Of a stretch of 64,000 bases of DNA, positions 30,087 to 30,880 are shown piece by piece. The DNA is from Escherichia coli. Its GTDB lineage: Bacteria > Pseudomonadota > Gammaproteobacteria > Enterobacterales > Enterobacteriaceae. Under the pieces are notes generated by a model that saw only the letters and a program-made list of their open reading frames with translations, searched no databases and was not told where the DNA came from. The stretch lies in assembly GCF_003334785.1 (NCBI RefSeq), contig NZ_QOWV01000004.1, one strand, 5' to 3'. A program made the translations under genes and the position numbers. Positions within the stretch are counted from its first letter, which is position 1. Each line of letters starts with the position of its first letter.

Positions 30087-30103
30087 ACCCTCTTCCAGGA
30101 ATA

Positions 30104-30133
30104 ATCCCTGGCCCAAAAAGCCGGGGATTTTTT
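30104..30133 (+). terminator. rho-independent terminator after yqiK
   Basis: tccctggc-ccaaaaa-gccgggga hairpin followed by tttttt; duplicated again at 30482-30511. Confidence 0.55.
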
Positions 30134-30274
30134 ATATCTGCGTTCCGCTAAAAAGTGCAAATGATCAGGTTGTTGCAGCATTTTGCGTGACGGCTCGGGG
30201 AAGGCAAAACTGCATCAGAGAAAGCATTGCGTGGGGTCTGGCGCTCATCAACAATCGGGGAGTCAGCAGGGGGC

Positions 30275-30425
30275 TGAAACGGGAAAGCCCCTCCCGAAGA
30301 AGGGGGCCTTACAGAAGGAAAGGGTTATGATGAAGCTCGTCATCATACTGATTGTGTTGTTACTCGTAAGTTTCGCAGCTTATTAACAGCCAATCAGAGG
30401 GGGGAGAAATCCTCCCTCACCCTTG
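30275..30425 (-). ncRNA. sibD: antisense sRNA covering ibsD (approximate ends)
   Basis: Inferred from the known ibs/sib arrangement; minus-strand hairpin gcccc(c)ttcttcggg(a)ggggc + UUU near 30280-30310. Confidence 0.5.
30327..30386 (+). CDS. ibsD: type I toxin, 19-aa hydrophobic peptide
   Basis: atgatgaagctcgtcatcatactgattgtgttgttactcgtaagtttcgcagcttattaa = MMKLVIILIVLLLVSFAAY. Confidence 0.85.
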   Translation: MMKLVIILIVLLLVSFAAY

Positions 30426-30649
30426 TTCCTTTACTTTAGGTTGAAAAAAAATCAGCGTCAAGAAGGTTTCATTAACACATATCCCTGGCCCAAAAAGCCG
30501 GGGATTTTTTATATCTGCGTTCCGCTAAAAGGTGCAAATGCTCAGGACGTTGCAGCGTTTTGCGTGACCGCTCGGGGAAGGCAAAATTGCCTCTGGGAAA
30601 GCATTGCGCGGGGTCCGGCGCTCATCAACAATCGGGGGGCAGCAAGGGG

Positions 30650-30800
30650 CTGAAACGGGAAAGCCCCTCCCGAAGAAGGGGCCTTGTATAAGGAAAGGGT
30701 TATGATGAAGCTCGTCATCATACTGGTTGTGTTGTTACTGTTAAGTTTCCCGACTTACTAACAACTCATCAGAGGGGGGAGAAATCCTCCCTTACCCTTG
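30650..30800 (-). ncRNA. sibE: antisense sRNA covering ibsE (approximate ends)
   Basis: Second copy of the duplicated unit, same arrangement as sibD. Confidence 0.5.
30702..30761 (+). CDS. ibsE: type I toxin, 19-aa hydrophobic peptide
   Basis: atgatgaagctcgtcatcatactggttgtgttgttactgttaagtttcccgacttactaa = MMKLVIILVVLLLLSFPTY. Confidence 0.85.
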   Translation: MMKLVIILVVLLLLSFPTY

Positions 30801-30880
30801 TTCCTTTACTCTAGGTTGAAAAAACAACAGCGTCAATAGGCCTGCCATGTACGAAGCGAGATCTGTGAACCGCTTTCCGG

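Follow-up and report, generated by a model that had tools for sequence, protein, structure and literature searches.

The tandem repeat between yqiK and hldE consists, almost certainly, of two adjacent and independently transcribed ibs/sib toxin-antitoxin modules, each under the control of its cognate Sib RNA and both derived from one tandem duplication in Escherichia, and no evidence was found that speaks against this identification. The array is the ibsD/sibD and ibsE/sibE locus of E. coli K-12, i.e., the reference example of the family and not a relative of it, and it is already known. The window, which denotes the whole stretch of 64,000 nt that was analysed, matches NC_000913.3 exactly at 3164440-3228439, and, thus, a K-12 coordinate is the window coordinate plus 3164439. 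A segment of 3001 bp of NC_000913.3 (E. coli K-12 MG1655, 3193500-3196500) was likewise an exact match to 29061-32061. The array lies between yqiK (end at 30086) and the convergent gene hldE (end at 30881), and the annotation of NC_000913.3 has sibD, ibsD, sibE, and ibsE at exactly the array positions, in the order given by the initial annotation. The latter had recognized the known ibsD/sibD-ibsE/sibE system, and this was borne out by the exact genome match, the RefSeq annotation, and the Rfam SIB_RNA matches. A megablast search with 29900-31100 as query matched 5426 of 5426 complete E. coli genomes, the K-12 strains at 100%, and the matched region is annotated in the complete genomes as Ibs family toxins.

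Tandem Repeats Finder (TRF) returned one array at 30104-30836 with a period of 377, 1.9 copies, 90% matches, and a score of 1235. Another estimate of the extent was a direct repeat at 30104-30838. The two units are as follows.

30104-30480, no strand assigned: repeat unit 1, the ibsD/sibD module (TRF period of 377, global alignment, and the junction common to all two-unit arrays)
30481-30838, no strand assigned: repeat unit 2, the ibsE/sibE module (TRF and global alignment)

A self-repeat search revealed two blocks in register, 30104-30260/30481-30637 with 92% identity and 30282-30461/30657-30836 with 85%, and the latter, ungapped value is this low because of two 1-nt indels. The global alignment of 30104-30461 with 30481-30836 had 33 differences in 358 columns, i.e., an identity of 90.8%, and a match of 358 bp at 91% is far beyond chance. 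The order of elements in unit 1 is a hairpin, a spacer of about 90 nt, the ibs promoter, the overlapping ibsD/sibD genes, the sibD promoter, and a junction filler of 19 nt (30462-30480). The homology of the units stops directly past the sib -35 box TTGACG, at about 30462 in unit 1 and about 30837 in unit 2, and is followed in unit 1 by the filler and in unit 2 by unique sequence toward hldE. Unit 2 is therefore truncated at the sibE -35 box, which results in the 1.9 copies. The initial annotation had proposed two units of about 378 bp with about 90% identity at 30103-30840; its identity held and its coordinates were right within a few bases, while the period had to be corrected to 377 and the second unit turned out to be truncated.

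The elements of the first module were assigned from the translation, the RefSeq annotation, and published primers.

30327-30386, plus strand: ibsD open reading frame, 19 amino acids MMKLVIILIVLLLVSFAAY and stop codon (translation; RefSeq b4664 'putative toxic peptide IbsD')
30227-30262, plus strand: putative ibsD promoter, TTGCGT-17 nt-AACAAT, with transcription start at G30262 (published primers mapped; hexamers by eye)
30262-30424, plus strand: ibsD mRNA, 163 nt, in the form made in vitro by Han et al. (positions of the primers ERI-T7-ibsD and ibsD+163)
30282-30426, minus strand: sibD antisense RNA, 145 nt, start at A30426 (RefSeq ncRNA b4447; Han 2010 primers; Rfam SIB_RNA)
30427-30461, minus strand: sibD promoter, 35 bp, -35 box TTGACG at 30461-30456, spacer of 17 nt, -10 box TAAAGT at 30438-30433 (promoter scan)

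The start of the ibsD transcript, determined by primer extension, follows from the positions of the primers MscIID+1 and ERI-T7-ibsD of Han et al. 2010 (PMC2943612) in the window. The hexamers of ibsD are weak, and the ibs promoters were not picked up by the consensus promoter scan. For the ibs mRNAs, the natural 3' ends are a prediction from a Northern blot band of about 160 nt (PMC2943612); in the case of ibsD, a weak terminator could plausibly be formed by the hairpin at 30397-30418 and the U-rich stretch behind it. The ends of the antisense RNA were located by the primers AatIID-F and SibDSmaIERI of Han 2010, which map to a +1 position at 30426 and a 3' end near 30282. SibD folds at -49.7 kcal/mol and has a 3' terminator hairpin at about 30285-30309, and its gene spans the whole ibsD open reading frame, the ribosome-binding site, and part of the 5' UTR. 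The minimal sibD promoter has been described as 35 bp with a +1A start, and both features drive the NAD capping of SibD and SibE (PMC12956327); by our own mapping, this published promoter is equated with 30427-30461.

The second module has the same design.

30702-30761, plus strand: ibsE open reading frame, 19 amino acids MMKLVIILVVLLLLSFPTY and stop codon (translation; RefSeq b4666 'toxic peptide IbsE')
30658-30801, minus strand: sibE antisense RNA, 144 nt, start at A30801 (RefSeq ncRNA b4611; Rfam SIB_RNA)
30802-30836, minus strand: sibE promoter, -35 box TTGACG at 30836-30831, spacer of 17 nt, -10 box TAGAGT at 30813-30808 (promoter scan)

SibE folds at -50.7 kcal/mol (z -3.3) with a GC-rich 3' hairpin, and its terminator is located at about 30661-30685. 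In both units, an own sib promoter and intrinsic terminator signals lie opposite the toxin open reading frame, the -10 box is 7 nt upstream of the annotated +1A, and the resulting RNAs of 145 and 144 nt fold into a body of several hairpins with a GC-rich terminator hairpin at the end. The two 19-codon open reading frames are nested antisense inside sibD and sibE. Both translations agreed exactly with the 19-residue hydrophobic peptides that had been read for the two units before, with mean Kyte-Doolittle hydropathies of 2.59 for IbsD and 2.25 for IbsE.

Downstream of the second module, at 30840-30883 and thus up to the hldE stop codon (30881-30883, minus strand), no convincing intrinsic terminator was found, and the local hairpin was no better than shuffled sequences. 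A hairpin over the hldE stop codon (30868-30882, plus strand) was considered as a terminator for ibsE or hldE and was rejected, as it had -5.2 kcal/mol and a z of -0.8 against shuffles. As a speculative side remark, read-through from hldE would enter sibE in the sense direction and would meet the SibE terminator mentioned above.

The membership of the two RNAs in a curated family was clear. Rfam RF00113 (SIB_RNA) matched on the minus strand with 147.7 bits (30461-30312) and 142.1 bits (30836-30687), in both cases over model positions 1-147 of 147, and the gathering score of this model is 56 bits. The model is offset relative to the transcript, i.e., its first 35 positions represent the sib promoter from the -35 box TTGACA onwards, and the 3' terminator hairpin is absent from it. 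Therefore, the Rfam coordinates (30461-30312 and 30836-30687) are not the transcript ends (30426-30282 and 30801-30658). Two plus-strand matches to SIB_RNA of 31.4 and 29.9 bits, which are below the gathering score, were put down to the palindromic ATGATGA…TCATCAT stem and dismissed. For the peptides, NCBIfam profiles yielded only noise (E > 0.3) after padding to 20-21 amino acids, the 19-residue originals being short for profiles. As they are too short for this search to be informative, their family membership rests on 100% identity to the annotated RefSeq proteins WP_001387081.1 (Ibs family toxin) and WP_010723221.1 (IbsE).

Given its intergenic position, its repeats, and its many hairpins, and given that the family was originally described as nothing more than a repeat sequence (PMC4147584), one could read the region as a non-coding intergenic repeat element (REP, BIME, ERIC or similar) with accidental short open reading frames. 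The probability of this reading is close to nil. Both units match the curated antitoxin RNA family at full length, and all homologous units, from those of Escherichia through to those of Phytobacter, retain the 19-codon open reading frame with its ATGATG start and hydrophobic core, also when the surrounding DNA has fallen to about 74% identity. In addition, transcripts, toxicity, and antisense control have been published.

Another possibility would be that the duplication has left one decaying, non-functional copy, with ibsD/sibD as the likeliest candidate. RefSeq labels IbsD only as 'putative', and about one quarter of the E. coli genomes have a single unit, from which it follows that two copies are dispensable. 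Against this, both units have an intact open reading frame, ribosome-binding site, sib promoter, +1A start, and terminator; the SibD RNA is abundant and well studied (PMC12956327); and an ibsD plasmid has been used in co-transformation assays, in which repression needed a recognition domain of the SibD type (PMC2943612). A decaying module is thus very improbable.

How these two modules would work follows the published behavior of the family. In each module, a weak plus-strand promoter would yield an ibs mRNA of about 160 nt, which would encode a hydrophobic membrane peptide of 19 residues, and a strong constitutive minus-strand promoter would yield a Sib RNA of about 145 nt with full complementarity to the ibs open reading frame, the ribosome-binding site, and part of the 5' UTR. 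The Sib RNA is expected to pair with its own ibs mRNA, starting at the target recognition domains TRD1 (inside the open reading frame) and TRD2 (immediately 5' of the ribosome-binding site), both of which are accessible. Translation would thereby be blocked and the duplex exposed to RNase III, so that the toxin would not be made. Since the duplication, the copies have diverged mostly in the recognition regions, and this would keep each Sib RNA specific for its own ibs mRNA.

This scheme is well founded in the literature, in which Sib transcripts, Ibs toxicity, cognate-only repression, and the tandem layout are all already documented. As summarized in PMC2943612 with reference to Fozo 2008, five Sib RNAs of about 140 nt are transcribed from the repeats, and the strands opposite to them encode hydrophobic Ibs peptides of 18-19 residues. 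According to the same summary of Fozo 2008 (PMC2943612), over-expression of Ibs causes envelope damage and is lethal, and the constitutive Sib RNAs repress in a cognate-specific manner, with the exception of ibsA. Recognition begins at two independent domains, one within the open reading frame (TRD1) and one directly ahead of the translation start (TRD2); synthesised SibD has been tested on ibsD, and SibC was redirected to ibsD when its TRDs were swapped for those of SibD (PMC2943612). The outcome of pairing is a translation block and probable processing of the duplex by RNase III (review PMC4147584). Northern blots and NAD-cap assays have revealed both the SibD and the SibE RNA (PMC12956327). 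Northern blots were also reported for SibE and ibsE, and in an sgrS mutant the sensitivity to α-methylglucoside (α-MG) was suppressed by the deletion of sibE (PMC9426594). For Salmonella, IbsA was reported to inhibit the Fo sector of ATP synthase (preprint 10.1101/2025.05.26.656083).

The differences between the two modules are concentrated in the recognition regions. With TRD1 at 30358-30380 and TRD2 at 30310-30318 in unit D, 8 of the 15 D/E differences in the transcribed overlap fell into the equivalents of the two domains, which make up 32 nt of this overlap of 143 nt in unit D (Fisher p = 0.006). The density of differences was 25% in the TRD1/TRD2 equivalents versus 6% in the rest of the overlap. 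Wider TRD windows, which were picked partly after seeing the data, gave p values of 0.0002-0.0005. The longest stretch of the overlap that is identical in D and E has 36 nt (30315-30350) and contains the ribosome-binding site and the first codons, within the conserved ATGATGA…TCATCAT stem.

Both units start with a hairpin of the yqiK type.

30103-30139, plus strand: hairpin and T-run, putative intrinsic terminator of yqiK, first element of unit 1 (terminator scan, 30103-30129; fold)
30481-30517, plus strand: second yqiK-type hairpin and T-run, first element of unit 2 (terminator scan, 30481-30505; fold)

The first hairpin lies 17 nt past the yqiK stop codon (30086) and has -17.5 kcal/mol with a z of -3.1, and the second is located downstream of ibsD, behind the sibD promoter, and has -15.3 kcal/mol with a z of -3.5; for both, none of 200 shuffled sequences folded as well. 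The first 50 nt of the units are identical (30104-30153 = 30481-30530) and comprise the hairpin, the T-run, and 14 further bases. The statement that each unit begins with a copy of the yqiK terminator hairpin was thus correct. With about 9% divergence in the rest of the unit, an identity of 50 nt has a chance probability of about 0.008. It fits either selection on both hairpin copies or local gene conversion, and the two are indistinguishable here. The hairpin with its T6 tail is kept downstream of yqiK in Citrobacter, Kluyvera, and Phytobacter, and in E. albertii and Escherichia sp. E1V33 the stem of the internal copy is preserved as well. From the sequence, we infer that both copies would terminate plus-strand transcription, that of yqiK included. 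As the ibsD mRNA of about 160 nt ends before the internal hairpin, the latter would be at most a backstop against read-through into unit 2.

The history of the duplication was reconstructed from other genera. A scan with the core pattern, with one genome per bacterial species, yielded 75 loci, which were classed by their flanking genes and by an nhmmer core profile. Six of these were chance pattern matches, i.e., L015, L023, L040, L061, and L076 without a core match and L045 with 18.8 bits; the chance matches stemmed from a Chlamydiae metagenome bin, Lysinibacillus, Peribacillus, and Oceanobacillus. A single ibs/sib unit between yqiK and hldE was present in Citrobacter (L013, L024), Kluyvera sichuanensis (L065), Phytobacter (L070, L077), and an Enterobacteriaceae genome (L054), and in all six loci with both flanks the hairpin and T-run occurred once, directly after yqiK and upstream of the unit. 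Single cores beside hldE, for which no YqiK match was returned, were found in Citrobacter (L018, L056), C. amalonaticus (L046), and Salmonella enterica subsp. arizonae (L038) and diarizonae (L032).

Two units were present in E. albertii (L011), Escherichia sp. E1V33 (L051), and E. coli. The junction GCGTCAAGAAGGTTTCATTAACACAT|ATCCCTGG is common to all two-unit arrays, with one or two substitutions. The single-unit outgroups together with the common junction indicate that the module was copied in its entirety, along with the terminator, in a single event in the Escherichia lineage. The copied segment of 377 bp, which is the whole yqiK-hldE intergenic module, starts at the base of the yqiK terminator hairpin and ends at the sib -35 box, and the copying took place in an Escherichia ancestor. 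The claim of the initial annotation that the duplication boundary includes the terminator agrees with the genera with one unit, which have one hairpin directly after yqiK and upstream of ibs/sib. Only unit positions 160-321 (30263-30424), which are essentially the transcribed overlap, resemble sibA, sibB, and sibC, with 77-80% identity, and the upstream 160 bp (hairpin, spacer, and ibs promoter) are common to D and E only. A division into D-type and E-type units as two orthologous groups was rejected, as a neighbour-joining tree of the units showed mosaic units. For the same reason, the tree cannot date the divergence, and the common junction is the evidence for a single event.

Further tandem arrangements were seen elsewhere in the family. 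E. coli SCPM-O-B-8794 (L029) has two cores beside serA, where K-12 has only sibC. Pseudocitrobacter faecalis has two cores beside fau (L022), where K-12 again has only sibC, and two beside mdtA (L021). Independent tandem duplication thus seems to recur in the ibs/sib family, as the literature already states.

The copy number is polymorphic in E. coli. At a coverage of at least 80%, a query of 110 nt across the junction of units 1 and 2 matched 4073 of the 5426 complete E. coli genomes; in about 1347 the match was limited to the hairpin half, and 6 had no match. A second estimate for the single-unit genomes, based on the count of matching places, was about 1280 and agreed with the about 1347. 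About 25% of the complete E. coli genomes therefore appear to carry one unit and about 75% two. Examples of single-unit E. coli are L005 (peptide …SFPTY) and L006 (…SFQAY), and in L008, one of the 6 genomes with no match, the locus is lost and a copy of IS903B lies beside hldE. It has already been described in general that the number of type I loci varies between strains and that ibs-sib loci are in tandem in one intergenic region (PMC2887945).

At least four variants of the Ibs C-terminus and TRD1 exist, …SFAAY, …SFPTY, …SFHAY, and …SFQAY. In the order of the array positions, K-12 and E. albertii have AAY and then PTY, E. coli MFDS1019527 (L007, two units) has PTY and then HAY, and E1V33 (L051) has HAY and then QAY. 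The variants thus occur in either position, and ibsD and ibsE are not positional orthologues across strains. The swapping of positions suggests recombination or conversion between the units. With only about seven arrays compared in detail, it is possible, and on balance rather doubtful, that the yqiK-hldE array is a polymorphic, recombining cassette locus with recognition regions under diversifying selection against cross-reaction; if true, this would extend known biology and would not add a new kind of system.

Three further RNA features were found elsewhere in the window.

21467-21615, minus strand: FMN riboswitch (RF00050, 120.9 bits), presumably the leader of K-12 ribB; ordinary
38756-38826, minus strand: Rfam match to the nucleoid-associated RNA naRNA4 (CssrE), 79.3 bits; a known K-12 feature
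51159-51231, plus strand: one tRNA gene (RF00005, 73.1 bits); ordinary

As a discovery, the locus carries little weight; it is part of the annotation of the reference genome, and experiments on it date back to 2008. The practical use is the one named in the initial annotation: a repeat scan should take the array, with its period of 377 bp and its duplicated terminator hairpin, for a pair of type I toxin-antitoxin modules rather than for a novel repeat. Slightly new are the single duplication in Escherichia, the copy-number polymorphism, the position-swapping variants, and the focus of the divergence in the recognition regions. Together, these side results outline, on a small scale and in testable form, the path of a toxin-antitoxin module from duplication to two pairs that do not cross-react.

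Compared with the Ibs/Sib family (RF00113) and its K-12 representatives ibsD/sibD-ibsE/sibE, everything was the same, i.e., positions, peptides, antisense RNAs, promoters, and tandem layout, and there was no substantive difference. The other K-12 members, ibsA/sibA-ibsB/sibB between yegL and mdtA and the single ibsC/sibC between fau and serA, share a core of about 160 nt with 77-80% identity to unit D. The A/B locus is also a tandem pair, but it goes back to a separate duplication with a shorter repeat of 257 bp, 85% identity, and a spacing of about 328-335 bp, and it has neither the yqiK-type hairpin nor the upstream 160 bp of D/E. More distant are Ldr/Rdl and Zor/Orz, which also combine a small hydrophobic toxin with an sRNA antitoxin in tandem in one intergenic region (PMC2887945). 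In contrast to Ibs/Sib, they belong to unrelated peptide and RNA families, their toxins are longer (29-35 amino acids), and their antitoxins overlap only part of the mRNA, whereas Sib covers the whole open reading frame and the translation start.
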